A stretch of 62,850 bases of DNA from a virus (taxonomy: Duplodnaviria; Caudoviricetes). How positions within the stretch are numbered: the first letter of the stretch is position 1; each line of letters opens with the position of its first letter. The notes below the pieces were generated by a model, which worked only from the letters and a program-made list of their open reading frames with translations, did not search any database and had not been told where the DNA came from. The stretch is from IMG/VR virus record IMGVR_UViG_3300018080_000184, positions 1-62,850 of that record; one strand, 5' to 3'. The translations under genes and the position numbers were made by a program. This document shows, piece by piece, positions 4,704 through 62,850 of the stretch.

Positions 4704-4744
4704 GTGCCTCTCCGGTTTTCTGGTAAAGATTTTTCGTCACCAAT

Positions 4745-4772: not shown

Positions 4773-4863
4773 CAGATGACGCTGGGACGGTCACCTTGCG
4801 TATCGGGAACGAATTCGTCAAAGTGGAGATAGCGGAAGTGCGTGGAACATTTAGGTAATTCAG

Positions 4864-8462: not shown

Positions 8463-8463
8463 G

Positions 8464-9320: not shown

Positions 9321-9383
9321 TGCAATTCCTCTCCTGATGGGATGATAGCAGACCATCATAACCCAGCGGATGTGCGCTCGGTT

Positions 9384-9410
9384 TGTGATATTCTCGCTGT
9401 GATATTCTCG
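9384..9410. repeat. 13-bp tandem direct repeat in a divergent intergenic region
   Basis: TGTGATATTCTCG at 9384-9396 and 9398-9410. Confidence 0.75.
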
Positions 9411-9426
9411 TGTTGGATAAAAAACG

Positions 9427-12381: not shown

Positions 12382-12710
12382 CGGACAGACCGCTGTATGA
12401 CCAGCAGGCGGTGGACCAGATTCGGAAGGAGCTGGCCGCGGGTATGGCCTCCGTGCGAGGAACGGAGGTCACCAACAGCATCGCCGCCATCTCGTTTGAG
12501 GAGCTGCTGGCGAGAGCCATCAGCGATATTGAGGACGACGAGAGCGATATCCGGCCGGGGAAGTTGAGCGCTGTGCTGCGAACTCGCCAGCAGGTCGTCG
12601 ATGCGGTTGAGCGAGCCAAGCAGCTGCCCGCCTCAATGTTCGCACTGGCTACGAGGACCGTGAGCAACACACGTCCGGACGGGTCTGGCCCAGGAGGAGG
12701 CGATGGTTGA
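12378..12710 (+). CDS. hypothetical protein
   Basis: Coupled by overlaps on both sides. Confidence 0.6.
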   Translation: MTDRPLYDQQAVDQIRKELAAGMASVRGTEVTNSIAAISFEELLARAISDIEDDESDIRPGKLSAVLRTRQQVVDAVERAKQLPASMFALATRTVSNTRPDGSGPGGGDG

Positions 12711-13353
12711 TTTGCAGTTCGTGGAAATGCGCGACGTGCTCAAAGTCCTCAATGTTTCGCCAGTGCAGAATTCTGATCCCTACACACTTCATGTCAAAGG
12801 GCAAGATTTCAACAACACCGAGTACGTACTCATCAACGATGTCATGTCTCCCAGCGTCGTTGTCGTGTCATCGACGGAGATGCTCGTACAAGTTCCAACG
12901 GACCCAGCTGATCCAATCCGATCGGTTGTAGCCATCAGCAGTCGATTGACGCGGACAGATCGAAGTCGGATGAGCTTTCGGATCAGCGACACGCCAAAAT
13001 CCATCGACGGCTTTGAGCGGTTGATTCAGGCATTCATGAAGACCATGCTGCAGTCGCCTGGCTCCGACGTCTTCGCCCCGCTCGTTGGTGGTGGACTGCT
13101 TGCCTCGGTCGGGAAGCAGATGCGGGACAAGCACGGGGCCACAGTTGTTTCTGATTTCCACGCGGCCGTCACTCGAACGAAAAGTCAGTTGCTTGCTATT
13201 CAAACCAACGATCCCTCACTGAAAATGACAGAGCGGTTGCTGTACGCGCAGGTTGCAGATGCGCGATTCATTCCGCACGAGCTGACGCTTATCGGAAAAG
13301 TGTTGTTGGGCAATCAAGCTGGGCACAGCTCAGTTGTAGGGTTGGGGTTGTAG
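12703..13353 (+). CDS. baseplate wedge gp25-like protein with N-terminal Ig/IPT-like domain
   Basis: IDGFERLIQAFMKTMLQSPGSDVFAPLVGGGL gp25-like pattern, directly upstream of the baseplate J-like gene. Confidence 0.65.
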   Translation: MVDLQFVEMRDVLKVLNVSPVQNSDPYTLHVKGQDFNNTEYVLINDVMSPSVVVVSSTEMLVQVPTDPADPIRSVVAISSRLTRTDRSRMSFRISDTPKSIDGFERLIQAFMKTMLQSPGSDVFAPLVGGGLLASVGKQMRDKHGATVVSDFHAAVTRTKSQLLAIQTNDPSLKMTERLLYAQVADARFIPHELTLIGKVLLGNQAGHSSVVGLGL

Positions 13354-13355
13354 CC

Positions 13356-17126: not shown

Positions 17127-17434
17127 TCGCCTTCCGGATCGAATATTGGCAACTGCGGCTCCAGGCGAGCAAGGTTTCCCATCTCCAGGACAAGCCGAGT
17201 GAAGGGCTCGAAGAGGCAGCCACAGTCGAGGCAGCGGCAATTTTTTCTTGGTATGGGTCGGTCCGAACGCAAAGCGTGTGCGACATCCAGTTCCGGACTG
17301 CAACTTCCACCGCAACGCGGACAGTACGCGTCATCGTAAATCGCCTGGTCTGCCTCGACGAGCTTGGTGAGTACGTCCTCCGCCCCCGCGAGAATATCGG
17401 CCAACGTGTCCCGTGCCATTTCCTTGAAAGTCAT
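17123..17434 (-). CDS. small zinc-ribbon protein
   Basis: CPRCGG and CLDCGC pairs. Confidence 0.7.
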   Translation of the reverse strand: MTFKEMARDTLADILAGAEDVLTKLVEADQAIYDDAYCPRCGGSCSPELDVAHALRSDRPIPRKNCRCLDCGCLFEPFTRLVLEMGNLARLEPQLPIFDPEGD

Positions 17435-17469
17435 GGACTTATAGTATACTTGGGTGTCGAGGAGACAGA

Positions 17470-20199
17470 ATGCCTTTTCCAACTACTGATTGGCCGACGT
17501 CCTATGACCCCATCGAAGACCGTACGGATGCCGTTGATATTGTGGCGGCTGATGACTTCGATTATCAGGACAATCAAGTACGTCAACTGCAGTCGTGGTT
17601 GGGAACCACCGGCAAGCTCATTGGCGAGGATGTGGCAGGAGCCGGCCCATCGGGACTTGCCAGCCCGGAAGCCGACGGCGGCATTGCTCACACGCTGGCC
17701 GCTCGCAACGCGTTCACAACGGGCAAGCTCCTCAGCGCTGGTGATGCATTCGACGCCGTCTATGTCGAGAAATTATTTCTCTCTGCCGCTGGAAGACTTT
17801 GGGCGAAAGACGGCGTTGACATAAATGATTCTGAATTTCTTCGTATTCCGGTTGGCGGCACGCTTCCGGTGACCTTCGACTCCGGGCGGCTCTTTTACAA
17901 AACCGGGGCAAGCGAGGGACTGAAGGTTGCGGACGGGGCTGCCTGGGGCGATGTCGGTGGGGGTGGAGCGCAGGCGGAGCAGTACATTGTTGGCAACGCT
18001 CCTAATGGAGATACGGCTGCCATCTGCAACTATCTCGACACCGGGAATGGGGCGCAGCTCAAACAAGCGATCGACGATGCCAAGGACACTGGCGGCGAGG
18101 TCTATATTCGCCCGGGCGTCTACGATTTTTCGCAACCAGGCGGTCCCACAACCGTTGTTGAAGTTCGACGCTGCAAGGTTCGCGGCTCCTCGAATGTGTA
18201 CAGTCCCTCGCCTGGCGTGGAAATCCGAACGAGAACAGACACGACTCTGAGCTTGTTCTACGTCAACAACGCGCTGCTCTCCGATCTCAACATAACGGTG
18301 CAGACACCGACAGCTCCGTGCGTTGGAACGTACATTGTTCGGAACACTGGGATTTGCGAACGAGTGGTCGTCGATTTTTCGTCACCCTCATGGTCGCCTG
18401 GACAAATCTCTGATGGCGGCATCGATTCGGTGTTCTATCAGACAACGCCCATCGCTCAGCTCATTGACTGCAGCGTTGGTCGATCCGCATTCGCGCCCGC
18501 TTTCGACCCAACCGCGCCCGGCAACTACCTGGCATGCGTTCGAGCGGCACATACAGATTCCACTGACCCATCGTACGTGTACGGCGGACGCCTGCACGGG
18601 GGTGACTACGGCATTTATGTAGACGGCGCACGCGTCAACGTTCTCGACGTGAAGACGTACCGAGCCTCGCTAAACGCGGTGGCTGTGGTCGGGGCCGCCT
18701 GGGGACGGATTGCCGGCTCCCACTTGGCCACGCGCTTGACCCCACCGAGCAGCCACGGTGTGGTCATCGATGCTGCGTCATCACGATGGGATATTTCTGG
18801 CAACGTCTTTGGCGACATACGTACCGGTACCGACGCGCTCAATGTGGGCGGCAGCTACTGCACCATTCGAGGAAATCGATCGCTTTTCCGCGGCATCAAT
18901 CTCTTGGTGAGCAGTTCCAACAATATTCTGGTGGCCAACCGCATGCCCATTCCATTGGTCGATGCGGGCACGGGCAACCTTGATCTGGACGCAGGCATCG
19001 CTGGAGCAGACCCCAACGCCATTCATGTCAACGCCTCTGGAGAGATTGCTGGAGTTGCGGCGAAGACCACACCAATTGCCGGTGATCTGCTGGTCATTGA
19101 AGACTCGGGAGCCGCGAACGTCAAAAAGAGTCTGCAGATTGGGGATATTTCTCATACGCTGCTCGACGACATTGGATCGAATAGTCATAGCCAAATTGAT
19201 TCGCACCTTTCGAGCATTCTCAATCCGCATTCGGTGACGAAATCCCAAGTCAGTCTCGGGAATGTGACGGATGACGCGCAGCTCAAGCGTGCCGGAAATG
19301 ACTGGTCTGGCTTTGGAGAGATCACCTCTCCAGCGAGCGACGACATCCTGCTCATGGAGGATACGGACGACTCAGGGAACAAAAAGCGTGTGCAGATCAC
19401 CAATCTGCCGAGCACCGACTCGGACGCTATTCACGATAACGTCTCGGGAGAAATCTCGATCGTGACGGAGAAGACGGTTCCCGTCACGACTGATGTCCTG
19501 CTCATGGAAGACTCCGCCGCCACCTATGCCAAGAAGCGGGTGCAGATTGGAAACCTTCCGGGGTACGGAAGCGTGTCATATGGAGGACACGAAGAAGATA
19601 TTCCTCCTGGAGCACCTTCAGCGAAGGACGACGAGTTCGCGGGCGCCAGCCTCGATCCGAAATGGGTGTGGCTGAATTCCGGAGCTCCCGCCGGCGGCGG
19701 TGAGAGTTACGGGGTTGCGAATGGCCGTTTCTACGCAGTTCTTGATCCGGATACGCCGGCTTTCGGTGACCAGCACACAATGGCCCAAACCGTCCCGGCA
19801 CAGAATTTCGAGTTCTATGCGAAGGTGTCGTGTCAACGCTTCGTCAATTTTCATTCAGTCGGCATCGGTCTGTTCGCCACCTCGAAATACGCAAATATGT
19901 GGTTGGGGCACAGGGCTGCTTACGGCGAATTCACCGGCTTGGTTCAAGAGTACGACACCGGCTTCATCGACCACTACACCTGGCCCGTACCGAATGACTA
20001 CGGGATATTCAAGATCTTCCACAACATCACGACCAAGCTGACCAACTTTTCCTTTACGGTAGACGGCTTTACATACACGCAGCTGTTTTCAAAAACGCTC
20101 ACGTGGACACCGACACACTTCGGGATAGATATGCTTGCCTACAATGCGTCAGTGGGTATGGTCTGTAATGCATATTGGTTTCGCGTGAATTTGTTGTAG
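17470..20199 (+). CDS. tail fibre/tailspike with right-handed beta-helix, internal repeats and C-terminal lectin-like domain
   Basis: LKQAIDDAKDTGGEVYIRPGVY beta-helix start; HLSSILNPHSVTKSQVSLGNV fibre motif; DDEFAGASLDPKW ConA-like start. Confidence 0.8.
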   Translation: MPFPTTDWPTSYDPIEDRTDAVDIVAADDFDYQDNQVRQLQSWLGTTGKLIGEDVAGAGPSGLASPEADGGIAHTLAARNAFTTGKLLSAGDAFDAVYVEKLFLSAAGRLWAKDGVDINDSEFLRIPVGGTLPVTFDSGRLFYKTGASEGLKVADGAAWGDVGGGGAQAEQYIVGNAPNGDTAAICNYLDTGNGAQLKQAIDDAKDTGGEVYIRPGVYDFSQPGGPTTVVEVRRCKVRGSSNVYSPSPGVEIRTRTDTTLSLFYVNNALLSDLNITVQTPTAPCVGTYIVRNTGICERVVVDFSSPSWSPGQISDGGIDSVFYQTTPIAQLIDCSVGRSAFAPAFDPTAPGNYLACVRAAHTDSTDPSYVYGGRLHGGDYGIYVDGARVNVLDVKTYRASLNAVAVVGAAWGRIAGSHLATRLTPPSSHGVVIDAASSRWDISGNVFGDIRTGTDALNVGGSYCTIRGNRSLFRGINLLVSSSNNILVANRMPIPLVDAGTGNLDLDAGIAGADPNAIHVNASGEIAGVAAKTTPIAGDLLVIEDSGAANVKKSLQIGDISHTLLDDIGSNSHSQIDSHLSSILNPHSVTKSQVSLGNVTDDAQLKRAGNDWSGFGEITSPASDDILLMEDTDDSGNKKRVQITNLPSTDSDAIHDNVSGEISIVTEKTVPVTTDVLLMEDSAATYAKKRVQIGNLPGYGSVSYGGHEEDIPPGAPSAKDDEFAGASLDPKWVWLNSGAPAGGGESYGVANGRFYAVLDPDTPAFGDQHTMAQTVPAQNFEFYAKVSCQRFVNFHSVGIGLFATSKYANMWLGHRAAYGEFTGLVQEYDTGFIDHYTWPVPNDYGIFKIFHNITTKLTNFSFTVDGFTYTQLFSKTLTWTPTHFGIDMLAYNASVGMVCNAYWFRVNLL

Positions 20200-20214
20200 G
20201 AAGGTTGTGCGTCG

Positions 20215-23200
20215 ATGGCCACTTACGGATCGCTGCCTTACGGAATAATGACGTATGGAGTCGGAACGCTCCCGGTCTCGCCGTCGTTTGACCTTCTCGA
20301 TCTGTGCCACCCAACTGACGCAATGATGTTGACGCTGTTGTCCTACGCGGAGGTTACGCCGCAGCGCGCTGGGATTCCGTGGTCCTGGTTCAACGGCAGC
20401 AATGATTATTGCATGTTCAGTAATGACGAGGCCGATTCTGGCTTTCGTATCGACCGTGCAATTCCCAACGACACATTCACGATCCAGTTCAGCATTCTGC
20501 CGACGGACCTTCCCTACGATTTTTCTGACACCACGAAATCAAGATTTTTCGTGGCTGCCTTCAATCGTTTGGGAAAGATGATCGGTCTTCTCCTGTCGGA
20601 AATGGGCGGCATCGCGTTGGCTCAGCAGGGAGATGGAAGCTACTCGCCGCTTGTCGATTCCGCCGACGTTTTTGATGAGGGCCTCGACTACTACGTTTTT
20701 CGGATCACGGCCAGTCACACTACGGGTCGGGCGAATCTGTACGTCACGCGCAGGGAGGTCATCGCAGCTGGAGGTGAGCACGAGCTGCGGTACACGTTCA
20801 ACCTTCTCGATTGCCCTACGCATGAAACAGACAACCTGCGTGTGGAGGTTGTTGGCAGCGCCACCGACCCGGTAACAGTCTGTCTCGATTGCCTGCGGCT
20901 GAGCAGCAGCGAGCTCGTGCCGAACCGCCGGCCGGTTGCCGTCATCTCCTCCGACCAGGTGCAGTTGTCGGGTAGCTACGCCAGCTTCGATGGGCGGCCG
21001 AGCTACGATCCCGAAGCACAGCCTTTGGTGTACATGTGGTCAGTTACCGACGCGCCGCTCACGTCGACGAGCTGGCAGACGATTGAGGCCACGTCGCCAG
21101 CTGATGCAACTGGCTACACCAATGTGGTCGTGGGGAACCCAAACGACTTTGCCTACGTGGAGGTGGGTGACCTTGCGGTCACGGACGTGGGCCACTCGTT
21201 TGTGCTCTACGTGGCGGGTGACGGCAGCTACATCGTCACCATCAAGGACCTCTTTGCGGCGGGAATCACTGCCGAATACCGGTTCCTTTCGCAGAATGGC
21301 TGGGGCGGCGTCCGCAATCCATCGACCATCATTGAGGTGCTCGGCCGTCGCGCTACGCCACCGGCTCTTCCAAATGACGGGGACACGTATCTGGTCATTC
21401 CGGTAGCGGGCGGTTTGTGGACCGGCCAAGAGGGGGATCTGGCGACGTGGGACAGTGGTGGCGGTGTTTGGGTCTTCACTTCTCCGGCCGTCAACACCAT
21501 CATTTACGTGCTGGATGAGTACGAGACCTATCGGACGCAGGGTCTTGGCCTATGGTACCCAGATGAGCCTTCACCATGGGAGCTCGAGCACTACGAGGGG
21601 CGAATCAGCAGTGTGGGCGCCTTTCTTGGTGATGAGCTTGGGCTCTACACCATTGAGCTGCTCGTCAATGACGGGGAGATTACCAGCCTGCCAACCGAAG
21701 CTCTGCTCAACGTTCAGGAGACGAGCACGGCCTACGGCTACACGCCGGATCTGAGCTTCATTTGGAACTACCTGTCGGACTTTTGGGCAATCGTGGCCGG
21801 TACGGAAATGGTAGAGACCTTCTGGTCGTCCATTGCTCAGTTGTCCGCCAACGAGCTGCTGAAGTTGTGGCAGCACGATTATAGCAAGGCCGTCCCGGAC
21901 ATTCAGCGGACGTTCCAACGTCGTTGGTTGGACTACGATGTGTTCTATGGGGAGCCGAACTACGATGAGCTGCCCGCCACAGTCGAGAACACGTTGGATG
22001 CGGCGGGATACTCGGCTGCTCCCAACGTCACGGCACAGCGTGCGGATGGCAGCACTTTCGAGACGGAATACGCGTACGACCTTGGCGTCATCGTCTCTGG
22101 AGTAACGGACCAGCACTATCTGGTCATCGACGGAATCTGCCATAAAATTGTGCGAGTAGAGACAAATGCGGCCACGACGGTCTACACCAACACGGCCATC
22201 GCCGCTGGTGTCGGCCGGTCGAAGTATTGGATGATTCGACCGACCGTCACCTCGAGGGCGAGCAACTTTTCTGACCTTGCCGTTACAGCTGGCGACAGCG
22301 CCATCTTTGAGGTGCAGACGGCGGAGGGTGATACTTCAGAGCTGACTGCCTATGTGTGGGGCGCGCGGGGCGCAGTCCTGGCCTTCGACGACAGCCTCAT
22401 CAGTGGGTACCTCACCAGCTCTACGTATGTAGTTCTCTTTAAAGGCGTTGTCCGCCGCAGCGCCATGCTGGTCGATGATCTGGTCATGCGCATTCCTCGA
22501 TTGCAGGAGGTCATTGCACCGAGTCGTGTGGAGGGGGCGCCCGACCCGCTTCATGGAAACCTCGATTTTCTTGTAGAGACCGCGACGACTGTTCAGGGGC
22601 AGGAGCGGAACACGATTCAGTTCCTGAATTCCTGGTTCCCACGCGAGCTACGGGGATTGTCGGGGTACACGAATGCGGTAGACCGAGGGTACTTCTTTGA
22701 CAGCACCGCTGACTTTGTGACCACGTTTGGCGCCGATGCTGATCTTCGAGGATATGTTCTTGATGTTGGTGGCAACCGATACCGGCTGTTTCAGGTGATC
22801 GCTGCGGATCAGGTCGAGCTGTTCGATGAAGCTCTTGAGCTCAACCTGACGGGGCAGAGTTGGGAAATTCGGTCGCTGTCAGATGTTCCCGACACCCTTT
22901 GGGCCGAAGTGACGTTTCTTGATAATCGTCCCACTATCGAGGCCAATTTTGGTCGTCTGGTCGGGTTTACCCTCGACGCACTTGAGGAACGGACCGACAA
23001 TCTGGATTACCTCTCAGCGGTCCGGGGTCTCTGGTACTTCGCTTGGCATGGCCGGACACCGTACAACATTCGTGTCGCGTGTCAGATCGTGTTGGGGCTG
23101 CCATTTGCTGAAGTAGCGGGAACAATTACTGATATTCGTGATCCGTTTGATGCCACGCGATCCAGAATACTCGTGCAAGACGCGAACATCACGACGACAA

Positions 23201-24444
23201 CTCGCTCCTACTTTTTTCCAACCTCACTTGGAGTTGCCATCAATCCCGCAACTGACGCTCCGTACACCATTGGAGATGGCGTGGAACAGTTTGCTCCGCT
23301 GTCTCGAGGAGTTGACGTCGTTGACTACATCAGCGATCCGGACTGGTGGGCGGTCTACGCCGGCTCAGGAGATTTTTGGGAGCCGCAGAAAGTCAGCACA
23401 TTTGGCGTGCTCATTGACGCCGATGCTTTTGATCTGGTGAACCTCATTTTTTTGGTGGACTACATTAAAAAGTACAAGCCACCCTACCTCTTTCCGTTCT
23501 TCTCTGTGGTGAAGACCCTTGATGACACAGTCGACATCGACGATGCGCTGGTGTTGGGCCCGGCTGTGCCTGCCGTCGGCTACGCGTACCCATCAGCCTG
23601 GCCGGCCTACGACATTCCGCCCGGTTGGGCTGACTCGCCTCACGAGGTTGCTCGCAGTGGGACACCGACGATACCGCCTGACCACGACACGCGGTGGGGT
23701 GGGCTGCATCTCTACGATGTGCCCGGCAAGCTTCCAGACGGTTGGTCCGGCGCATGGCCGTCTGGAGCTCCGGGCACCCATGCGCCAACCAGGTCAGAGG
23801 GCAGTTTCCGGGTTGACGACACCGATGAGAGCGGCCACTGCATACACAAAGTCGACGCGCAGTTGGACGCCGTGAACGTGCTGCTCGATGCCGACTGTGA
23901 GGATGGCATCAACCCGGGTGGTCCCGGTAGTCCGTGGGGACTCGTCACTCCTGGTGGTCTGCCGCTGACTGCTGTCAAGAGCGCGCTGCAATTTGTCAGC
24001 CCAACAAACAGCATCCACATCATCTCGGCGGGCGCCGGATATGGTGTCTACCAGGACTACCCGGCGCTTGTGGCCGAAGGCTGGCAGGTAGCGGTTCGTG
24101 GAAAGGTCTACGTGCTCAACGGCGCGGCGCACTTTCGCATCATTGACCAAGACGGCGCGACAGTGTTGGCCGAGCTCAAGAAGTCGTATCCAGCAGGGGC
24201 TTGGCTGGATTTCACCATTCACGCCTGGGAGGTCAGTGGCACGGCAGCGCCATTGCAATTCCAAATCCTTACCGGCCCAGGTGGCGGTAATTTTTTTGTC
24301 GATGATTTGGAAGCCTATTCTGTGTTGATGCCGTGGGATCAATGGGGCGTCGACCGTGTGTATTATGGGCGCACCGGAGGCTATACTGTCGGGGGACTCC
24401 CGGACGAATATTGGAATTTCTGGCTACACGCATCGTTGCCGTAG
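20215..24444 (+). CDS. large baseplate/tail structural protein with PKD-like and carbohydrate-binding-like domains
   Basis: FDGRPSYDPEAQPLVYMW PKD-like motif; DFSW-type wedge segment DLSFIWNYLSDFW; 1409 aa. Confidence 0.65.
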   Translation: MATYGSLPYGIMTYGVGTLPVSPSFDLLDLCHPTDAMMLTLLSYAEVTPQRAGIPWSWFNGSNDYCMFSNDEADSGFRIDRAIPNDTFTIQFSILPTDLPYDFSDTTKSRFFVAAFNRLGKMIGLLLSEMGGIALAQQGDGSYSPLVDSADVFDEGLDYYVFRITASHTTGRANLYVTRREVIAAGGEHELRYTFNLLDCPTHETDNLRVEVVGSATDPVTVCLDCLRLSSSELVPNRRPVAVISSDQVQLSGSYASFDGRPSYDPEAQPLVYMWSVTDAPLTSTSWQTIEATSPADATGYTNVVVGNPNDFAYVEVGDLAVTDVGHSFVLYVAGDGSYIVTIKDLFAAGITAEYRFLSQNGWGGVRNPSTIIEVLGRRATPPALPNDGDTYLVIPVAGGLWTGQEGDLATWDSGGGVWVFTSPAVNTIIYVLDEYETYRTQGLGLWYPDEPSPWELEHYEGRISSVGAFLGDELGLYTIELLVNDGEITSLPTEALLNVQETSTAYGYTPDLSFIWNYLSDFWAIVAGTEMVETFWSSIAQLSANELLKLWQHDYSKAVPDIQRTFQRRWLDYDVFYGEPNYDELPATVENTLDAAGYSAAPNVTAQRADGSTFETEYAYDLGVIVSGVTDQHYLVIDGICHKIVRVETNAATTVYTNTAIAAGVGRSKYWMIRPTVTSRASNFSDLAVTAGDSAIFEVQTAEGDTSELTAYVWGARGAVLAFDDSLISGYLTSSTYVVLFKGVVRRSAMLVDDLVMRIPRLQEVIAPSRVEGAPDPLHGNLDFLVETATTVQGQERNTIQFLNSWFPRELRGLSGYTNAVDRGYFFDSTADFVTTFGADADLRGYVLDVGGNRYRLFQVIAADQVELFDEALELNLTGQSWEIRSLSDVPDTLWAEVTFLDNRPTIEANFGRLVGFTLDALEERTDNLDYLSAVRGLWYFAWHGRTPYNIRVACQIVLGLPFAEVAGTITDIRDPFDATRSRILVQDANITTTTRSYFFPTSLGVAINPATDAPYTIGDGVEQFAPLSRGVDVVDYISDPDWWAVYAGSGDFWEPQKVSTFGVLIDADAFDLVNLIFLVDYIKKYKPPYLFPFFSVVKTLDDTVDIDDALVLGPAVPAVGYAYPSAWPAYDIPPGWADSPHEVARSGTPTIPPDHDTRWGGLHLYDVPGKLPDGWSGAWPSGAPGTHAPTRSEGSFRVDDTDESGHCIHKVDAQLDAVNVLLDADCEDGINPGGPGSPWGLVTPGGLPLTAVKSALQFVSPTNSIHIISAGAGYGVYQDYPALVAEGWQVAVRGKVYVLNGAAHFRIIDQDGATVLAELKKSYPAGAWLDFTIHAWEVSGTAAPLQFQILTGPGGGNFFVDDLEAYSVLMPWDQWGVDRVYYGRTGGYTVGGLPDEYWNFWLHASLP

Positions 24445-24452
24445 GAGCGTTG

Positions 24453-24767
24453 ATGCCGTTCATACCAAAAGTCGATGACCACGCGTATCTTTTTCCAGTC
24501 GACGCATCGAGTGTCGAGGATGACACCATCATCCTTTCGGGACCCGCGACTGGAACTCCACCGGCGTCGTGGTCCAACCCCACGACAAACGATGCGTGGC
24601 ATCCAGCCATCGCTGACTTAGGGACGCCAGTGAACGAGTGGAAGAACGGCACGGGCCACACTGGTTATGGAACGGGCGCCGCACCAAATGGCAGTTGGAA
24701 AGTCGACATTCCGCTCCCGGATGGGTGGTACACGCGTGTTACGCGAAGGGATAAGCTCAAGCCATGA
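24453..24767 (+). CDS. hypothetical structural protein
   Basis: AGGAG RBS before ATG 24453; ATGA coupling to the next gene. Confidence 0.6.
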   Translation: MPFIPKVDDHAYLFPVDASSVEDDTIILSGPATGTPPASWSNPTTNDAWHPAIADLGTPVNEWKNGTGHTGYGTGAAPNGSWKVDIPLPDGWYTRVTRRDKLKP

Positions 24768-25537
24768 AAAAACCTCCTGGACCCAAGACAGTCGGTTTTC
24801 GCGATGACATTCGTGTCAGTGAGAGTCTCGGCCTCACGCTTCGAGATCCTGGCGGGAATATTGTCGGTGCTCGAGGGAAGGGAGGAGGGGGAGGGGGTGC
24901 ACCTCCGGTAAAAATCTTCTCCAACGTCCGTTTGCGGCTGAAGGATGAGAAGGGGCGCGTTGTCGAAGAACGGGAGAGCCACAACATCTTCTTGGATTAT
25001 GGCCGCGACTGGCTGGCGCAACTATGCTCCTTGGACGCCGGCTACCTTCCCTTTCGTAGTGATCGCGTCCGTTACATGGCTTTTGGAATTGGTGGCACAA
25101 GTCAGCTGGTACCCTCCAACACCATTCGGGTCACATACCCAGGCTACCCGGATCAGTGGGTTGCGGGCTCGGGAGGTGCGGGTGATCCCGTCCAAACCGA
25201 TACGGACCCAACCATCACGGCGCTTGAGTGGCCAGTTGAGGTGACGTCGGGAATCTACTACGACGACGTTTCGGCCCCAGCCACATTTCCGGGAACGGGC
25301 ATTGTCCGTTTTACTGGGGTGCTTGGCATCAATGAAGTCAGCTTCGGCACGTACACGAGCGTGCCGCTGTCTGAGATCGGGCTTTTCACCGAAGGTGTTC
25401 CAGATCTGGCGCAGCCACCTATCGTGGCGGGAACATTGCCCGCCGAAAAGTTCATGGTGGCGTACAACACATTCGATACCCTCTCCAAAACGACCGCGTT
25501 TGTGCTGCAAGCTGATTGGGAGCTGCGCTACGCGTAA
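24764..25537 (+). CDS. tail-collar/baseplate fibre-attachment-like protein
   Basis: ESHNIFLDYGRDWLA, YMAFGIGG, LSEIGLF and C-terminal WELRY pattern. Confidence 0.65.
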   Translation: MKKPPGPKTVGFRDDIRVSESLGLTLRDPGGNIVGARGKGGGGGGAPPVKIFSNVRLRLKDEKGRVVEERESHNIFLDYGRDWLAQLCSLDAGYLPFRSDRVRYMAFGIGGTSQLVPSNTIRVTYPGYPDQWVAGSGGAGDPVQTDTDPTITALEWPVEVTSGIYYDDVSAPATFPGTGIVRFTGVLGINEVSFGTYTSVPLSEIGLFTEGVPDLAQPPIVAGTLPAEKFMVAYNTFDTLSKTTAFVLQADWELRYA

Positions 25538-25548
25538 GGAGTGATCTG

Positions 25549-28185
25549 ATGGCTCTTCCACATCCTTTGTACATCACGGGACTAGGCTTCGACTCTGGGG
25601 AGCTTTTCTACGGCTGCACCACCCCGCTGGACGTGGACGGGCCTCCTGGATCCGGCTCACGCGGGGTTGCTCCCGGTGAAGACTCGTTGTCGACGACATT
25701 CAACCGTATTTCCTATGCTTTGGCAAAGAATGTCGAGTACCTTTACGACATCTTTGAGGCCGAGCTTGCCTACACCGAAGTTGGCGCGCTCACCACGTTT
25801 ACCGGAAATTCGATCGATGTCGATATGACGGGTGGGTGGGGTGGCGACGTCAACTACACCGGCTTTCTGTATCTGGGCGAGGCAGGATGGACCACGCAAG
25901 AGTTCATCGACACGCTCTTCCAGATCCTTGACGAGAACTACAACGAGGTCATGGTCGGGGATGTCGAAGCACGAGTCACGAGTATCACTGGCGCGGCTCT
26001 CGGGACCGGGTTTTTCAACTCAAACCTCGTGACGCTCAATCTCAACGTCACGTTGCCGAGCGGAAACTACCGTCTGGTGTACCCGCGTGGCGCATCCTTT
26101 GAGGACCTGCCGGCGTACAGCCTCATTCGCGCTGATATCCGCGGCCTTCAGGAAGATGCAGCCGAGACGGTTCGGCGAAGCGTTCATGTCATCGGCCCCG
26201 CCAATGATCCGGAAGGCGTGGACTACGCCGGCCCGACAGCTATTCAGGATGCGCTGGCGGCGTTGGGAGATGGGTGCGTTCTTTTCGTGAAGGCGGGGAC
26301 GTACACGCTCTACCAGGCCGGGACCCCCAACCCGCTCACCATTTCACAGCGCGATGTGACCATCATTGGGGAAGGGGAGGGGCAAGTCACGCTTCAGGTC
26401 GCGGACGGGCACCTGCTGACGGTGACGGGCCAACGGCTGACGCTCATGGGAGTTACAGTGGCTGGTGGCACGAACACTGCCATGTTCACGACCACAGGCA
26501 GTATTCGGATCGAGGATTGCACCTTCGATGCGCTATGCTTTGCCTGCGTACCGGGGAATCTTTCCTCCATTCGTAATGTGCAGGTGACAAATACACTCCC
26601 GTTCATTTCCAGCTTGACGTTCTCGAATAGCCAAAATGTCTCCGTGGAAAATGTGACGATAGCAGCGCCGACAGGATCGGGCAGCCCATTTATCCACGCC
26701 GTATCGCTTGTGCAATGCAGCTCATGTTCTTTGACCAACGTACGTTTTGCAAACGCCGCGTTTGGGTATCACGGCTTACAGATCAACAGTGCGTCAGAGT
26801 GCACGTTTGATAGTTGCGTATTTGATACGATCGATTTATCTGCGCTTGAATACAGCGCCATTGCTCAGAACAGACGCAATACCCTTCGATCATGTGTTTT
26901 TAGGAGCAATGTGCAGGTTGTTGAGGCGGGTGGCGGCGGCGTGCTTCAGAAAGTGCAGTATTCGTTCCATGACTGCCTGTTTGAGAATACGGCCATTGCC
27001 GAGTACCAGGTACCGTTTGTCGCGTTCAGCGCCGGAGAAACGGGCGGTGAGGAATATGGAATTGTTTTGGACAATTGCATTTTCCGCGACGCGTGGTGTC
27101 GGGGGCGGGACGGGGGCGGAACGAATCATCCGGTGATAGAGCTCGTTGGTGTGCACGCGCGTAACATGACGGTGGACCGTACGGGTGCCTCGAAGATGTA
27201 CCAGTACGGCGCGCACGTCGAGATGACCCGCTCTCGCGTCGATGGCTTGTACGTGAAGCTGGACTGTACGGTGATCGACCCGGGTCTCCCGGGCGCTCCA
27301 AATGCTGGGCCAGCCATGCTCGATGTGCTTGATAACAGTGTGCTGCGCAATGTGCACATCTCTGGTGTCGAAGGCTATTGGATCTTCTCAGCCTTTCATC
27401 TTCAAGGGTCGCGAGTTGACTTCGGATTGGATGTACCGCATTACGCGATGGTCGAGGGAGTAACAATCCTTCCGGCAAATCCGGGGACAAGCACTTGGGG
27501 GTGCTACCGACCCCAACCGGGAGGGGTCCTAGCGCATCTAGAAGAGGTATCCATCTTTCGGCGTGCTTTTATCGGAGATACGTGCCGATTTCAGGAAGAC
27601 TCCGCAAATGGAGCGTCTTCTCTAATCGAGATCGGTGGTGATGACGTTGAAGTGTCTGATTGCAATTTTGTTATTCCGGATGGTTGGTTCGACTACTTGA
27701 TTTATGGCGGATCGGTTCAGCGTGCACGGATCGAGAGAAACTCAATCACGTTGGTGAAAGGGCACTTTGCCGTAGATTTATTGAATACGTGCCACCAACC
27801 AATCTGGCTAAACGGTGGCGGGAACCATCACATCCACGCCAATTATATTCGCTGGTTTGGCGAATTTCCTGAAGAAAACTCGGCAGCTCCTCCTGTCGTC
27901 ACATGGGCACTTATTGGCTTAGCGGCGACGGTTCGAGACACAGTCATTTCTGGAAATGTATTGGAATCGACGACAACGGATAATGGAGGACCGCCAAACA
28001 ACCGTGCCTGGCTCATGAAAATCTATGGTGTCGACAGCGCGGGTGGGGCGCCGAGCCAAAACAACAACACTTACGGAAACACGTTGACGGTACAGCTCAG
28101 CCCGAACTCCATTCCTGGCTCGGCCTACTATGCCGGAACGACGCCGCCCGGAGATGTTATCAACAACGGGTCGTATTGGGCGTGA
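25549..28185 (+). CDS. tailspike-like right-handed beta-helix protein
   Basis: AIQDALAALGDGCVLFVKAGTY...VTIIGEG start and many xNxxF / DCxF ladders. Confidence 0.75.
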   Translation: MALPHPLYITGLGFDSGELFYGCTTPLDVDGPPGSGSRGVAPGEDSLSTTFNRISYALAKNVEYLYDIFEAELAYTEVGALTTFTGNSIDVDMTGGWGGDVNYTGFLYLGEAGWTTQEFIDTLFQILDENYNEVMVGDVEARVTSITGAALGTGFFNSNLVTLNLNVTLPSGNYRLVYPRGASFEDLPAYSLIRADIRGLQEDAAETVRRSVHVIGPANDPEGVDYAGPTAIQDALAALGDGCVLFVKAGTYTLYQAGTPNPLTISQRDVTIIGEGEGQVTLQVADGHLLTVTGQRLTLMGVTVAGGTNTAMFTTTGSIRIEDCTFDALCFACVPGNLSSIRNVQVTNTLPFISSLTFSNSQNVSVENVTIAAPTGSGSPFIHAVSLVQCSSCSLTNVRFANAAFGYHGLQINSASECTFDSCVFDTIDLSALEYSAIAQNRRNTLRSCVFRSNVQVVEAGGGGVLQKVQYSFHDCLFENTAIAEYQVPFVAFSAGETGGEEYGIVLDNCIFRDAWCRGRDGGGTNHPVIELVGVHARNMTVDRTGASKMYQYGAHVEMTRSRVDGLYVKLDCTVIDPGLPGAPNAGPAMLDVLDNSVLRNVHISGVEGYWIFSAFHLQGSRVDFGLDVPHYAMVEGVTILPANPGTSTWGCYRPQPGGVLAHLEEVSIFRRAFIGDTCRFQEDSANGASSLIEIGGDDVEVSDCNFVIPDGWFDYLIYGGSVQRARIERNSITLVKGHFAVDLLNTCHQPIWLNGGGNHHIHANYIRWFGEFPEENSAAPPVVTWALIGLAATVRDTVISGNVLESTTTDNGGPPNNRAWLMKIYGVDSAGGAPSQNNNTYGNTLTVQLSPNSIPGSAYYAGTTPPGDVINNGSYWA

Positions 28186-57638: not shown

Positions 57639-60600
57639 ATGGCTCGATTCGACCCCGCAGAGAGTTTTCAAGCTCTCAAAGACCGGGTACAGACGGCGAT
57701 TCAGGAGAGCTTTCCCCAGGAGGGCACCAAGCACATTCTCGAAGTTGACAGCGTTGACGTGAAAGAGGACCTGCACGTCAACGATGTCCCCGCGCAGAAG
57801 AAGGCGAAGATGGGCGGAAGGACGTGGGGGATCCCCATCCACGCCAATCTTGTTCTGAAGGACAAGAAAACGGGAAAGGTTGTCGACCGCAGCCGCCAAA
57901 AAGTGGCGACGCTGCCAATGATAACTAATCGTTACTCCTACATCGTTGACGGGTCAGAGTACCAGGTCGACAACCAATGGCGGCTCAAGCCCGGCGTCTA
58001 CACGAAGGTGAAGCAGAACGGCGAGCTCGAAAGCTTCTTCAACATCAAAGGACGCCCCTTCCATGTGAACTTTGATCCGCAGGAGAAGAAATTCAAGGTC
58101 GCGCTCGGTGGCTCGAATCCTCCTCTCTACCCCATCATGCGAGCTCTTGGCTATGACGATGCGGCGCTCAAAAAGCAGTGGGGCGAAGACATCTTTCAGG
58201 CCAACCGTATGGACACACGCGGCCGCCCCATCAATGTGTCGAAAATCGTAACGAAGTTCGCCGAGCGTTTGGATCCAACGGCGACGGTGGAGAGCTACGA
58301 TCAGGCCGTTGAAGTGATCCGAGACAACTTCGCTGAGACCAAGCTCGACCCGACGGCAACAAAGCGGACGTTGGGTAAGGCCATCGACCGTATTACGCCC
58401 GAGGCCGTGCTGCGGTCGTCGCAGAGGTTGCTGGGCGTCTCGCGAGGCGAAGAGAAGCCGGACGTCCGCGACTCACTCATGTTCAAGACCTTTCACGGCA
58501 TCGAGGACATTCTTGGGGAGCGGATTACCGAGAATCGAAAGATCATTTCTCGTCGAATCAAAAACAATTTGGATCGGCGCGGAAAGATTCGTGACATTGT
58601 CGGCCCAGATGTCTTTAATCGGCCGCTCAAGGATTTCTTCGGCCAGTCGACATTGGCCAGCACAACGTCTCAGACAAATCCGCTCCACATCATGTCGGGG
58701 CAGATTCGGACCACCATCACTGGCGAAGGCGGAGTGAAGGATGCGAATCGCATCACCGAGGACGCGAAGCTTGTGGATCCATCGCACTTCGGTGTGCTCG
58801 ACAGCCTCCACACTCCAGAGTCCGGAAAGACTGGTGTCACACTGCATCTAAGCATTGGGGCGCGGAAGCAGGGGAATGACGTGACCATTCCTCTCTACAA
58901 CGCCAAGACCGGCAAGCTGGAGCACCTGCGGCCCGAACAGGTACACGACTCCATCGTGGCTCTTCCCGATTCGGTCAAACGCGTAGGCGGTAAATTCGTG
59001 CCGAAAAAGGGCAAGACGGTCACTGCCAGCACCGTTGGCAACGAGATGCGGGAAATGTCGATGGACAAGGTTCAGTACATCGTTCCTCGCTCGAGTCAGA
59101 TGTTTTCGATGGCGACGAACCTGGTGCCCTTCATCTCCTCCGACTCCCCCAACCGTGCCACGATGGCCGGCCGGCAAATGGAGCAAGCGATCGCACTCAA
59201 AGAACGAGAGGCGCCGCTTGTTCAATCCGCTCTTGGCAAAAACACGTTCGACGATCTTGTTGGCCGCTTTTCAAGTCAGCGTGCGCATGTAGACGGAAAG
59301 GTCGTCGATGTTTCAAAGGACTACATCACCATTTTAGGCAGTGATCGGAAAAAGCATCGCGTGCCGCTGTACGACAACTATCCGACCAACGACAAGAAGG
59401 GCTTTCTTCACAGCGAGCCGGCGGTCAAGGTCGGCGACGTGGTCAAAAAGGATCAGCTCGTCGCCGATACCAACTTCTCGCGCGGTGGAGTCTACGCTCC
59501 CGGGACCAACCTGACGACGGCCTACATGCCGTACCGAGGCTACAACTTCGAGGATGGAGTGGTGCTGTCCGAAGCAGCGGCAAAAAAGCTTTCCTCCGAG
59601 CACATGTACAAGAAGGGCATCACAACGACCGACGCCGAGGTTTCGGGCAAAAAGAAGTATCAAGCGTACTTTCCGACCAAGGTCGATAAGGAGCAGCTCG
59701 AAAAGCTGGACGACGGGGGCGTGGCCAAGCCCGGCCAGGTGCTCAAGCCCGGTGACACGATCATCGCTGCCATGGCCAAACGCGAGCTGACGACTGAGGA
59801 GCAGAGGTTTCGGCAGCTACACAAGTCCATTGTCAATCCCATGAAGGACAAGGCCATCACCTGGGAGGAGGATGTTCCTGGCGAGGTGGTCGAGGTCAAA
59901 AAGCGTGGCCGGCGAGTGGATGTCCACATCCGCACCACCGAGGCGGCAAAGCTCGGCGACAAGGTGTCCAACCGTCACGGCGGCAAGGGGATCTGTACCG
60001 CCATCCTGCCCGACGAAGAGATGCCGCGAACCGAAGATGGCAAGCCGGTCGACATCCTGTTCAACCCCATCGGCCTCGCCGGCCGCATGAATGCGGGGCA
60101 GGTGTTGGAGGTGGCTGCGGCGAAGATTGCGAAGAAAACCGGGAAGCCGTTCAAGGTCGCCAACTTTGAGCTCGAGGACAATATCGGTCACGTCCAAGCA
60201 GCGCTCAAGGAGAATGGGATTGCCGACAAGGAGACCGTTCTCGATCCGACAACCGGCAAGAAGATCCCCGGCGTGCTCGTTGGTCCTCAATATTTCCTCA
60301 AGCTTGAGCACCAGGTCGACAAGAAGATGGCGGCGCGTAGTCGGGATTCCTACGACCAGAACCTCGTACCCAAAGGCGGCGGCCCAAAGGGTGGCCAGGC
60401 GCTTGGTGCTCTTGGTGTCTACGCTCTGCTCGCACGAGGTGCCAAGGCCAACGTGCGTGAGATGAGCACATACAAGAGTGACCGTGCCAATGCTGGCGAC
60501 AACGACGAGCTATGGATGGCGCTCCAGTCCGGAGAGATGTTGCCGCCACCCAAGCCCACCTTCTCGTACAAGAAGTTCGAGTCCATGTTGCGGGCGGCGG

Positions 60601-62850
60601 GGGTCAATGTGGAGCAGGACGGCAACTCCCTCAACCTCATGCCCCTCACGGACAAGCAAGTCCTGGAGATGTCGAACGGCGAGCTCAAGGACGCGGGCAA
60701 GTTAATCAAGATGCGCACCCTCAAGCCCGAAAAGGGCGGTCTCTTCGATCCCGAAGCAACGGGTGGTCATTCAGGATCAAAGTGGTCGCACATTCCCCTC
60801 TCGACGCCGATGCCCAACCCTCTATTCGAGAAGGCCATCATGAGTGTGGCTGGGATTCGGGGGCCGCAGTATGAACGGCTCATCAAGGGTGAGGCTGGCG
60901 TGCTCACCGACGGAACCATCATCGAGGAGCAAGGGGCAAAAGGGGCGGTGTACGGTCCCAAGTCTGTCGGCCGCCTTTTGGGCAACGTCAACGTCGAGAC
61001 GACGCTCAAGCACGAGGAGGAGAGGATCCCCAAGCTCAAAGGCCAGCTCCAAAATGAAGCCCGCCGACGCATTAAGTATCTTCGAGCACTCAAAAAGACG
61101 GGAATGTTGCCCACTGAAGCGTACATGATGAACAACCTCCCGGTTTTGCCGCCGAATATGAGACCCGTCGCCGTGCTGGATGACGGCCGGCTGCAGACGG
61201 ATGACGTGAATGAGCTGTACAAGCAGTTCGCCATCGTCAACAAGAAGCTCAAGGAGTTCCCAGCCGGCACGCCAGCAACAATCAAGGCGCCTCTCGAGGC
61301 CGATATTTATGATCACCTCAAAGCGGTCACCGGACTAGGAGGCACGCTCAATCGCAAATTCCCGGGCCTCGTGCAACAGATTGCCGGCGTTGAAAGTCCG
61401 AAAAGCGGCTATTTTCAGAACGTCATCATCAAACGCAAGCAAGACCTGACCGCCCGCTCTACCATCGTCCCTGAGCCCAAGCTCAGCCTCGATGAAGCGG
61501 AAATCCCTCGCAAGGCGGCGAAGGAAATGTACAAGCCCTTCCTCATCCGTGAGCTGCGGCGAACAGTGGGTGCCACGCCCCTTCGGGCCAAACAGATGAT
61601 TGACCAAGGCGATCCGCTGGCTGAGAGAGCGCTGGAAAGAGTCGTTCAAGAGAGGCCAGTATTGTTGAAGCGCGACCCCGTTCTTCACAAGTACGGCATC
61701 CAAGCTTTCCAACCCAAGCTCACCGAAGGGAAGGCGATCAAGATACACCCGCTCGTGTGTTCAGGGTACAACGCCGACTTTGACGGCGATCAGCAATGCG
61801 CAAGCGTACTTATAGCCGTCGAAAGATCTGTGTACAACCGCGGTATAAGCTTCTATGAACCACGGAGAATTTACATGACCGCGAGATTCATGGAAGCTGT
61901 AGGCTATACGACCGACGAAGGTGAACTTGTTGTCTGCAACCTCGAGGATTTTCCTCATCTGCCCGAAAAAACTACTAAAGGCCACATCGACTACCATCCC
62001 GTGCCGGAGGGAATACGCGTTGTTTGTCTCGATGAGGCAACGGGAGAGCCCCGCCTTGCGCCCGTAACTGGATGGTCACTTCATCGACAGAGACAGATCG
62101 AGATCGTGACAACGGGCAGTGGTCGCCAGATCATTACAGACGATGATGAGAGGGCCGTGTATGGCGTGGACGCATCCTCTCTTGAATGGTGTCGTCGTCG
62201 GCCGTCAGAATCTGAAAATCAATTTGTTCCGATCATCGACGAAGCGCCTAGCCACGCTGGGTGGATAAAAACATTGCCGCTTCCCGAAGATTCCCGTTGT
62301 CGTCTACGCAACGAGGTGACCGTCGATTTCGACTTCGGATATTTTCTCGGCGCCTTGATTGGTGATGACTGGGTCATGTATGCGGATGGTCGGCCAGCGG
62401 GTGTGGTTTTGGCATCAAGTTATCCTGAGGTGGCGCAAAGGTGGGTTGAAGCCAGCCGGTCGGTATTTAAAGAAGCACCGCATACGTCGCGGGCGGTCAT
62501 TACGGAAGGCAAGTTCGAGAACAGCTGCGGCTGTACAAACCACACCATCTATTCCGCTGCATTGGCCAGGTTCATCGAACCGCTCATTGGCCGCGGTGCG
62601 GAAAATAAGCACCTGCCACCATTTTTCTACGGGGCTTCGGATAGCTTCCGTGAGGGATTGTTGAGTGGTCTATTTGATACCGACGGCTCCATGAGTTGGT
62701 CCAACGCGAAAGAGAAGCCGCAGTTTTTGTGCGCGTACCACTCCACAAGTCTCCGTCTGCTTCAAGAGCTTCAGCATCTGTTGCGAACATGTCGGGTGGC
62801 GTCAACGATAACGCCCTACCAGACACCGCAAGGCGCGCCCTGTTGGATTC
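57639..62850 (+). CDS. rpoBC: fused DNA-directed RNA polymerase beta/beta-prime subunit, intein-containing (3' truncated; not in ORF track)
   Basis: Hand translation in one frame: beta motifs DPSHFG..HTPE, GYNFEDG, GDKVSNRHGGKG, YFLKLEHQVDKK; beta-prime motifs RTLKPEKGGLF, LPVLPPNMRP, HPLVCSGYNADFDGD. Confidence 0.95.
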   Translation, partial: MARFDPAESFQALKDRVQTAIQESFPQEGTKHILEVDSVDVKEDLHVNDVPAQKKAKMGGRTWGIPIHANLVLKDKKTGKVVDRSRQKVATLPMITNRYSYIVDGSEYQVDNQWRLKPGVYTKVKQNGELESFFNIKGRPFHVNFDPQEKKFKVALGGSNPPLYPIMRALGYDDAALKKQWGEDIFQANRMDTRGRPINVSKIVTKFAERLDPTATVESYDQAVEVIRDNFAETKLDPTATKRTLGKAIDRITPEAVLRSSQRLLGVSRGEEKPDVRDSLMFKTFHGIEDILGERITENRKIISRRIKNNLDRRGKIRDIVGPDVFNRPLKDFFGQSTLASTTSQTNPLHIMSGQIRTTITGEGGVKDANRITEDAKLVDPSHFGVLDSLHTPESGKTGVTLHLSIGARKQGNDVTIPLYNAKTGKLEHLRPEQVHDSIVALPDSVKRVGGKFVPKKGKTVTASTVGNEMREMSMDKVQYIVPRSSQMFSMATNLVPFISSDSPNRATMAGRQMEQAIALKEREAPLVQSALGKNTFDDLVGRFSSQRAHVDGKVVDVSKDYITILGSDRKKHRVPLYDNYPTNDKKGFLHSEPAVKVGDVVKKDQLVADTNFSRGGVYAPGTNLTTAYMPYRGYNFEDGVVLSEAAAKKLSSEHMYKKGITTTDAEVSGKKKYQAYFPTKVDKEQLEKLDDGGVAKPGQVLKPGDTIIAAMAKRELTTEEQRFRQLHKSIVNPMKDKAITWEEDVPGEVVEVKKRGRRVDVHIRTTEAAKLGDKVSNRHGGKGICTAILPDEEMPRTEDGKPVDILFNPIGLAGRMNAGQVLEVAAAKIAKKTGKPFKVANFELEDNIGHVQAALKENGIADKETVLDPTTGKKIPGVLVGPQYFLKLEHQVDKKMAARSRDSYDQNLVPKGGGPKGGQALGALGVYALLARGAKANVREMSTYKSDRANAGDNDELWMALQSGEMLPPPKPTFSYKKFESMLRAAGVNVEQDGNSLNLMPLTDKQVLEMSNGELKDAGKLIKMRTLKPEKGGLFDPEATGGHSGSKWSHIPLSTPMPNPLFEKAIMSVAGIRGPQYERLIKGEAGVLTDGTIIEEQGAKGAVYGPKSVGRLLGNVNVETTLKHEEERIPKLKGQLQNEARRRIKYLRALKKTGMLPTEAYMMNNLPVLPPNMRPVAVLDDGRLQTDDVNELYKQFAIVNKKLKEFPAGTPATIKAPLEADIYDHLKAVTGLGGTLNRKFPGLVQQIAGVESPKSGYFQNVIIKRKQDLTARSTIVPEPKLSLDEAEIPRKAAKEMYKPFLIRELRRTVGATPLRAKQMIDQGDPLAERALERVVQERPVLLKRDPVLHKYGIQAFQPKLTEGKAIKIHPLVCSGYNADFDGDQQCASVLIAVERSVYNRGISFYEPRRIYMTARFMEAVGYTTDEGELVVCNLEDFPHLPEKTTKGHIDYHPVPEGIRVVCLDEATGEPRLAPVTGWSLHRQRQIEIVTTGSGRQIITDDDERAVYGVDASSLEWCRRRPSESENQFVPIIDEAPSHAGWIKTLPLPEDSRCRLRNEVTVDFDFGYFLGALIGDDWVMYADGRPAGVVLASSYPEVAQRWVEASRSVFKEAPHTSRAVITEGKFENSCGCTNHTIYSAALARFIEPLIGRGAENKHLPPFFYGASDSFREGLLSGLFDTDGSMSWSNAKEKPQFLCAYHSTSLRLLQELQHLLRTCRVASTITPYQTPQGAPCWI
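61791..62850 (+). mobile_element. intein with LAGLIDADG homing endonuclease inserted after NADFDGD (3' end outside window)
   Basis: Beta-prime similarity stops after DFDGD(Q); GYFLGALIGDD (about 62337) and LLSGLFDTDGS (about 62658); NKHLP and STSLRLLQELQHLL intein-endonuclease motifs. Confidence 0.88.

Follow-up and report, generated by a model that had tools for sequence, protein, structure and literature searches.

The viral record IMGVR_UViG_3300018080_000184 encodes a multisubunit RNA polymerase, with beta and beta-prime parts fused in one chain, that is interrupted directly after its catalytic motif NADFDGD, the Mg-binding loop of the active center. The insert is a genuine intein of 510 residues, harboring a Hint domain and a LAGLIDADG domain, and it lies exactly between the last Asp of the motif and the next Thr. 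The window analysed here is the whole record of 62,850 bases (completeness 36%) and ends inside the intein. The intein begins with Gln and has Asp and Arg at the block B positions of the usual Thr and His. It belongs to a large, deeply diverged, and undescribed clade, termed SN for inteins ending in Ser-Asn, which has at least 131 nonredundant members, all at the NADFDGD site, and 809 representatives at E ≤ 1e-30. SN is a third lineage without a nucleophile at residue 1. The most likely splicing route, to which a probability of about 0.5 is assigned, would be a direct, class 2-like attack by Thr+1 on the N-terminal junction.

An intein between NADFDGD and the following threonine

The polymerase open reading frame (ORF) of the window (positions 57639-62849, plus strand, from a program-made ORF list) is still open at the 3′ end. 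P0002, a protein of 2563 residues encoded on a 110.7-kb contig, equals the window ORF at all 1737 residues (100% identity) and carries the full insert as NADFDGD / QQCASV...TDGIVLSN / TMSAYVPIT, i.e., with a C-terminal Ser-Asn and Thr at +1. On the 3′ side of the insert the beta-prime sequence resumes, with Pfam domains Rpb1_3 and Rpb1_5 at residues 1918-2463. Removal of the 510 residues leaves 2053, equal to the intein-free homologues, and the shortened protein aligns with the intein-free P0120 position by position at 55.5% identity with zero gaps. The intein-free homologues P0114-P0121 (2053 residues) read NADFDGDTMSAYVPIT, and NADFDGD-x-M occurs in 56 distinct intein-free contexts. On the basis of the matching extein length and the gap-free alignment, the insert starts at Gln 61791 (codons Gln1 61791-61793, Gln2 61794-61796, and Cys3 61797-61799) and ends with Ser-Asn, and the +1 residue is Thr. 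The sequence-only reading of the window had noted QQCASV directly after NADFDGD and proposed a Gln-initiated intein, provided that the insertion point lies right after the last Asp; letters and frame are as described from 61791, the homologues fix the start there, and P0002 supplies the C-terminal Asn, the +1 Thr, and the return to beta-prime that lie downstream.

The window copy has Cys at position 3, as would suit an ordinary class 1 intein starting at Cys 61797 and leaving Gln-Gln in the mature polymerase. This highly improbable reading was rejected because it is contradicted by the alignment with intein-free homologues: the extein length equals theirs only with Gln-Gln removed, and two extra residues after NADFDGD are seen in no intein-free allele. 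Of 79 relatives, moreover, just two have Cys at position 3, which is otherwise hydrophobic. A junction at Cys 61797 together with a normal TxxH elsewhere, which would have overturned the sequence-only reading, thus finds no footing, as no conserved TxxH occurs elsewhere in the intein among the 79 SN members.

Profile comparisons and structure prediction both identify an intein. A family profile, A2, built from 17 members, matches the solved structures of PI-PkoII (E = 1.5e-19), PI-PfuI (2.5e-12), and the Ssp DnaB mini-intein (2e-07), as well as TFIIB and V-ATPase inteins, while the clade profile reaches 18 solved chains; the alignments to solved inteins span the block B region and blocks F and G. 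A single-sequence search of the PDB with the 510-residue intein gave nothing at E ≤ 10. The AlphaFold model of the precursor segment (mean predicted local distance difference test, pLDDT, 77.9; predicted template modeling score 0.74) has a confident Hint core and endonuclease and best matches full-length, endonuclease-bearing inteins, with Tli VMA at the top (7qss; E = 2e-20, template modeling score 0.73 on target), followed by 2cw7, 1dq3, and PI-SceI. It also matches I-DmoI.

By profile and fold matches, the insert has the Hint fold and its blocks A, B, F, and G. It sits in frame within a conserved host motif from which it is missing in homologues, and is followed by the host sequence in frame. 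It ends with Asn, invariant in 79 of 79 SN members, followed by Thr (at +1, Thr in 130 and Ser in 1 of 131 SN inteins). Between blocks B and F are two LAGLIDADG motifs with acidic residues, predicting a homing endonuclease. Both motifs, which the sequence-only reading had placed after the Hint-like segment, are located in the window, and Pfam LAGLIDADG_3 scores above its cut-off on the window ORF (E = 5.4e-08; 33.4 bits versus 22.5).

Two other explanations of the insert were rejected. The most improbable of all readings is removal from the RNA, by a group I intron that would carry the LAGLIDADG ORF in frame: translation can run across either junction without a stop, the two ends of the insert carry Hint blocks, and at E ≤ 1 neither window positions 60291-62850 nor the complete relative L003 (7680 bases) matches any Rfam family and hence any model of a group I or II intron. 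Bacterial intein-like (BIL) domains have no +1 nucleophile and cleave instead of splicing, and here +1 is Thr, Ser, or Cys in 161 of 161 cases.

The SN clade and its catalytic positions

The clade was delimited in two steps of sampling. Among the best 120 proteins, both junctions are present in 95 (94 distinct), comprising 79 SN inteins, including the window copy, and 15 of a sister clade, WD, named for inteins ending in Trp-Asp. A profile search of 1.84 billion representative proteins gave the 809 matches at E ≤ 1e-30, of which the best 150 were examined; in all of these with both junctions readable, the insert follows D[FY]DG[DN]. In the pooled set, both junctions are present in 162 of 241 proteins (161 distinct), the other 79 being intein-free, truncated, or variant at the junctions. 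The 161 comprise 131 SN inteins, 27 WD inteins, two ending in Tyr-Asp, and one ending in His-Asn. All 131 SN inteins sit after D[FY]DGD, and of the 30 non-SN inteins, 29 have Ser, Cys, or Thr as their first residue. A tree from which the junction residues were excluded splits SN from WD by a branch with 96% support in the Shimodaira-Hasegawa-like approximate likelihood ratio test, and the SN end branches have a median of 0.55 changes per site. SN members that start with Cys or Ser occur at dispersed points within the clade, for a total of six changes on the tree.

The WD sister clade (P0070, P0082, P0086, P0087, and P0096-P0110; loci L012-L020 and L052) occupies the same site and has Ser, Cys, or Thr at residue 1, an S-x-x-H block B, Trp at G:6, Asp at G:7, and Thr, Ser, or Cys at +1. 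The inteins of loci L017 and L049 end in Tyr-Asp. A small sister group (P0105, P0108, and P0112) reads NADFDGN/C...VWD/T, such that Asn at -1 replaces the third catalytic Asp; these inteins start with Cys, end with Asp, and have T-N-E-S without His in block B. If they splice normally, the product would carry NADFDGN.

In the following, residues are numbered as in the intein of P0002, and conservation counts are from the 79 SN members unless a total of 131 is given. Residue 1 is variable (Q38, E9, A8, D5, C5, N3, R3, S3, and five others) and is not Cys, Ser, or Thr in 71 members. The same holds for 123 of 131 (Q61, E15, A13, D12, C5, L5, N4, R3, S3, Y2, H2, G2, F2, M1, K1), such that a potential residue 1 nucleophile, Cys or Ser, is present in only 8 of 131 SN inteins. 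Position 3 is L32, I26, F7, V5, Y5, C2, and H2. No column of the Hint parts reaches 60% Cys.

Block B departs from the class 1 pattern as well, with Thr(B:7)-x-x-His(B:10) replaced by Asp117 and Arg121. The hidden Markov model (HMM) alignment to PI-PkoII sets 'ddDpr' over 'TSG-H'. The ITDDDERAVY that the sequence-only reading had pointed out at the block B position, instead of TxxH, corresponds to intein residues 115-124, with T116-R121 encoded at 62136-62153. D117 (78), D118 (76), D119 (79), and R121 (79) are invariant or nearly so, and D-x-D-x-R-[AG]-[VI] is present in 129 of 131 SN inteins. An upstream TKGH is a chance match to TxxH, its Thr being kept in 29 and its His in 40 of the 79 relatives. 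An S-x-H formed by Ser96 and His98 precedes block B in 127 of 131 SN inteins, and the pair is also present in 12 of 15 WD members.

Further conserved positions include R135 (79), S509 and N510 (79 each; Ser at G:6 and Asn at G:7), and Asp491 at F:4 (79). Near-invariant polar residues are T483 (76), E487 (72), D491 (79), T493 (78), E498 (77), and T499 (76). In the alignment to Ssp DnaB, 'aeTF' lies over 'PHNF', placing Glu498 at the site of the block F His, presumably position F:13. The Trp-Cys-Thr (WCT) triad of class 3, a check named by the sequence-only reading, is absent; its equivalents are Val123 (76), Asp491 (79), and Leu508 (72).

SN inteins also have an extra segment at intein residues ~10-50 (window 61818-61940) that follows block A and precedes the 'LEDFPH' strand. 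It carries a conserved M-x-A-R-F motif (R32 in 80%), is modeled at pLDDT <50 (construct residues 37-59), and in the WD clade is shorter or missing.

Table 1. Features of the polymerase gene and its intein in the window (all on the plus strand)
Feature	Position	Strand	Basis
N-extein: fused beta/beta-prime multisubunit RNA polymerase, through catalytic NADFDGD	57639..61790	+	ORF list; Pfam Rpb2_6, Rpb2_3, Rpb1_1, and Rpb1_2 in one frame
NADFDGD codons	61770..61790	+	Sequence; intein-free homologues go straight to T/S/A/K/H-M-S-A
Intein, first 353 of 510 residues; the window stops inside	61791..62850	+	Identical P0002; profile and fold matches
Block A equivalent QQCASVLI; Gln1 non-nucleophilic, Cys3 nonconserved	61791..61814	+	Counts in 79 SN members
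TKGH (residues 62-65), chance TxxH, not block B	61974..61985	+	Upstream of the stretch aligned to PI-PkoII block B
Ser96-Leu97-His98, invariant S-x-H ~20 residues before block B	62076..62084	+	79/79 each
Block B GRQIITDDDERAVYG; Asp117 at B:7, Arg121 for His B:10, one extra residue (E120)	62121..62165	+	HMM alignment to PI-PkoII
First LAGLIDADG motif FGYFLGALIGDDWV, acidic Asp192	62334..62375	+	G183 and G187 invariant; position 192 D56/N21; W194 78/79
Second LAGLIDADG motif GLLSGLFDTDGS	62655..62690	+	Pfam; G293 79/79, D296 76/79, D298 76/79

Probable splicing and its proposed chemistry

The intein would have to splice, since the loop that it interrupts is buried and binds Mg, and no second copy exists in the genomes checked: the Rpb1_2 domain is confined to one ORF in five of five intein-bearing phage records, including one that is 94% complete. 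These phages' sole multisubunit RNA polymerase would consequently be inactive until the splicing step is done. The +1 residue is Thr, Ser, or Cys in 161 of 161 intein-bearing alleles versus 37 of 56 distinct intein-free contexts (T36, A12, K6, H1, S1), with a Fisher p of 5e-13 that does not control for kinship or endonuclease target preference. Taken together, these observations argue for a working splicing element.

A decayed, nonsplicing intein, with the polymerase gene dead or rescued by another factor, is very unlikely. Such a state would fit the absence of both catalytic residues that inteins conserve most and the Pfam score below threshold. Of the only two inteins lacking His B:10 that had been reported by 2014, one is described by Mills et al. 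as a pseudogene (PMC4031507). It would not fit the intact ORFs of ~2000-3400 residues in the records examined, the lack of a second beta-prime catalytic domain in the five records, or the 809 representatives among 1.84 billion proteins. Moreover, the same 10-12 polar residues, together with the two LAGLIDADG motifs and a nucleophile at +1, are retained in 131 nonredundant members.

In the most likely route, the Thr+1 hydroxyl would be activated by Asp491 (F:4), perhaps with His98, and would attack the Asp(-1) carbonyl directly to yield the usual branched ester. Arg121 and the Asp117-119 cluster would polarize the scissile amide in place of the block B His. Asn510 would then cyclize, freeing the intein, and an O-to-N acyl shift would give NADFDGD-TMSAYVP. 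In favor of this proposal is the strict retention across SN of D117-D119, R121, S96, H98, R135, D491, E498, S509, and N510. The unusual splicing chemistry suggested by the sequence-only reading would be the best-supported reading of the insert; the conditional switch on phage transcription that it offered as an alternative is conjectural.

Class 2 is the nearest working analogue. As described by Mills, Johnson and Perler 2014, it consists of KlbA orthologues only, which have Ala1, Ser G:6, and Cys+1 and need Thr B:7, His B:10, and Asp F:4 (PMC4031507). The Methanocaldococcus jannaschii KlbA intein and its orthologues share with SN the lack of a residue 1 nucleophile, Ser G:6, Asn G:7, and Asp F:4. 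Because the nucleophile is missing in both, both need an attack on an amide rather than on a (thio)ester. In contrast to KlbA, SN shows various residues at position 1 (Gln in 61 of 131), has Thr at +1 (130 of 131), and carries Asp at B:7 and Arg at B:10; the host gene and insertion site differ as well. SN looks independent of KlbA in origin, since its nearest relatives are class 1-type inteins at the same site. No KlbA-named chain is among the 18 solved chains reached by the SN profile, a KlbA structure being presumably in the bank.

Class 3 is exemplified by mycobacteriophage Bethlehem DnaB and relatives. Tori et al. 2010 (PMC2807308) give it a non-nucleophilic residue 1, Thr or Ser at +1, a phage setting, and a few Ser1 or Cys1 members, all as in SN, and locate these inteins in the P-loops of helicases and terminases. 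However, the WCT triplet that defines class 3 is absent from SN, as is the block B His, which class 3 retains. The Tko CDC21-1 orthologues are natural inteins that likewise have no His in block B; its loss is proposed to be offset there by a basic residue, Lys58, as it may be by Arg121 in SN (PMC4031507, PMC6333167). They differ from SN in being class 1 with a residue 1 nucleophile and in that Lys58 lies outside the motifs, while the SN Arg is at the His position itself. PI-PkoII (2cw7), PI-PfuI (1dq3), and Tli VMA (7qss), the best profile and fold matches, share the Hint and LAGLIDADG architecture, yet all are class 1 and their identity to the SN intein in structural alignments is ≤14%. None of the three defined classes accommodates the SN catalytic set: residue 1 rules out class 1, and the absence of Trp B:12, Cys F:4, and Thr G:5 rules out class 3 by its own definition.

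Several points weigh against the Thr+1 route. The only characterized class 2 inteins use Cys+1 and need Thr B:7 and His B:10 (PMC4031507), while SN has the weaker nucleophile Thr at +1 and replacements of both block B residues. The invariant Ser96 and His98 could be an internal nucleophile and its base. For all members, the chemistry is deduced from sequence. The AlphaFold model informs fold only and discriminates among no mechanisms; its junction residues (construct residues 1-20 and 528-547) are at pLDDT <50, and the nearness of Thr+1, Asp491, His98, and Arg121 to the scissile bond is presumed. The excess of Thr, Ser, and Cys at +1 may be due in part to which targets the homing endonuclease prefers and to common descent. 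Finally, Pfam Intein_splicing scores 18.3 bits on P0002, under its cut-off of 35.8, and covers the C-terminal blocks only; for annotation, this means that Pfam overlooks the N-terminal half of the SN intein.

The alternative routes differ in what attacks first. In a class 3-like scheme, which ranks after Thr+1 attack and is considered unlikely, an internal oxygen nucleophile, either Ser96 with His98 as the base or one of T483, T493, and T499, would attack the junction, and the N-extein would then pass to Thr+1. The invariance of S96 and H98 and the S-x-H in 127 of 131 SN inteins are consistent with it; furthermore, an internal nucleophile can replace residue 1 in class 3, with Ser or Thr favored at +1 (PMC2807308), and class 3 cleavage is described as protease-like (Beyer et al. 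2020, PMC7664689). However, the same pair occurs in 12 of 15 WD sisters that have Ser, Cys, or Thr at residue 1 and a normal S-x-x-H block B, and therefore predates the loss of the nucleophile. In addition, a His aligns at the S-x-H site in class 1 PI-PkoII, the class 3 position F:4 is invariably Asp, and T493 and T499 are at positions that are also polar in class 1 inteins by the Ssp DnaB alignment.

Ranked third, and quite unlikely, is a chemistry based on the acidic surroundings, in which the Asp(-1) side chain would attack its own carbonyl to form an anhydride or a divalent metal ion would activate the scissile bond. In the metal variant, the ion would sit between D117-D119, E498, and D491 of the intein and the DFDGD loop of the extein, and maturation of the polymerase could follow metal supply. 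The adjoining motif is the known Mg-binding loop, the D[FY]DGD context is constant across SN (131/131), and five invariant or near-invariant acidic residues occupy sites that in other inteins form the active-site lining. His is also missing from all three places where it normally assists, with Arg at B:10, Glu at F:13, and Ser at G:6. On the other hand, the constancy of Asp(-1) is uninformative on its role because the insertion site sets it; moreover, one sister group has Asn at -1 (NADFDGN/C). It is unlikely that SN constitutes a fourth mechanistic class, free of assisting His at B:10, F:13, and G:6. Such a class would be marked by D-D-D-x-R, Glu F:13, Asp F:4, and Ser-x-His and would cleave an Asp-X amide without a residue 1 or Cys nucleophile. 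Since the acidic cluster adjoins the Mg-binding DFDGD loop of the polymerase, splicing and with it the start of phage transcription could then depend on a divalent metal ion or on the Asp(-1) side chain.

Literature position, distribution, and host gene

Three mechanistic classes of inteins are recognized, and the KlbA lineage and the WCT lineage of helicases and terminases are each thought to have arisen once, according to PMC4031507. In Tori et al. 2010, all then-known inteins without an N-terminal nucleophile were WCT inteins, one of five KlbA orthologues, or one pseudogene (PMC2807308). Mills et al. 2014 count just two inteins that have no His at B:10 (PMC4031507), and Friedel et al. 2018 name the block B His as the single most conserved intein residue (PMC6333167). 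In the full-text literature, with subscription-only papers, InBase, and supplements outside the search, no published intein at NADFDGD was found. For the archaeal Mja rPol A′ intein (PMC1635734), the insertion site could not be established, so the absence of any known intein at the motif is not claimed. No fourth or new intein class was found named in the literature since 2014, and no relevant description was found in the literature on phage RNA polymerases and inteins. The paper on a phage lineage with a multisubunit RNA polymerase (PMC7481178) has no mention of inteins, homing, or LAGLIDADG.

SN combines a block B without His, Thr+1, and class 1-like sisters at the same site. This raises the questions of how a splice-junction amide is opened without Cys, whether an Arg and an acidic cluster can stand in for His, and how one intein lineage switches mechanism. 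Inteins able to dispense with Cys or Ser as the first residue and to accept Asp at -1 would also be of interest for protein engineering.

Among 80 loci in IMG/VR, the full intein is recognized at 16 distinct places, and 40 loci are recognized as intein-free. Ten further loci read by eye comprise seven that are intein-free, with Lys or Ala next, two Tyr-Asp-ended inteins, and one truncated SN intein. This patchy distribution among related phages fits homing, for which the predicted endonuclease domain accounts. At the intein-free loci L014, L025, L030, L033, L036, L042, and L075, the residue after NADFDGD varies. Lys, Ala, or His at this position is unable to act as +1, and such alleles may resist productive invasion.

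The host polymerase has beta-type domains (Pfam Rpb2_6, E = 1e-61, and Rpb2_3) followed by the beta-prime-type Rpb1_1 and Rpb1_2 in a single chain. This fusion, ~2053 residues without the intein, is found in a tailed-phage lineage (the window ORF, P0002, and P0114-P0121). The window also encodes the tailed-phage markers tail sheath, DNA polymerase, primase, DnaB-like helicase, and UvsX-like recombinase. A protein search with the polymerase ORF gave 6882 proteins at E ≤ 0.001 among 7999 candidates.

Elsewhere in the window, a run of very large ORFs (984, 1256, 909, 1409, and 889 residues) occupies positions 9427-28185 on the plus strand. These have almost no PHROG match, the sole exception being the 1409-residue ORF, which matches three families of unknown function over ~60 residues. 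The intein part of the window has a somewhat lower G+C content (0.51-0.55 versus 0.55-0.64), and its AT skew is shifted.

Polymerase ORFs of 2900-4700 residues in relatives match the intein profile in three to five separate stretches (locus L002, positions 598-10704, a 3368-residue ORF encoding P0123; P0124, P0132, and P0224), such that these polymerase genes probably contain several inteins. Hom_end and Peptidase_M23 also appear in the precomputed Pfam lists of some relatives.

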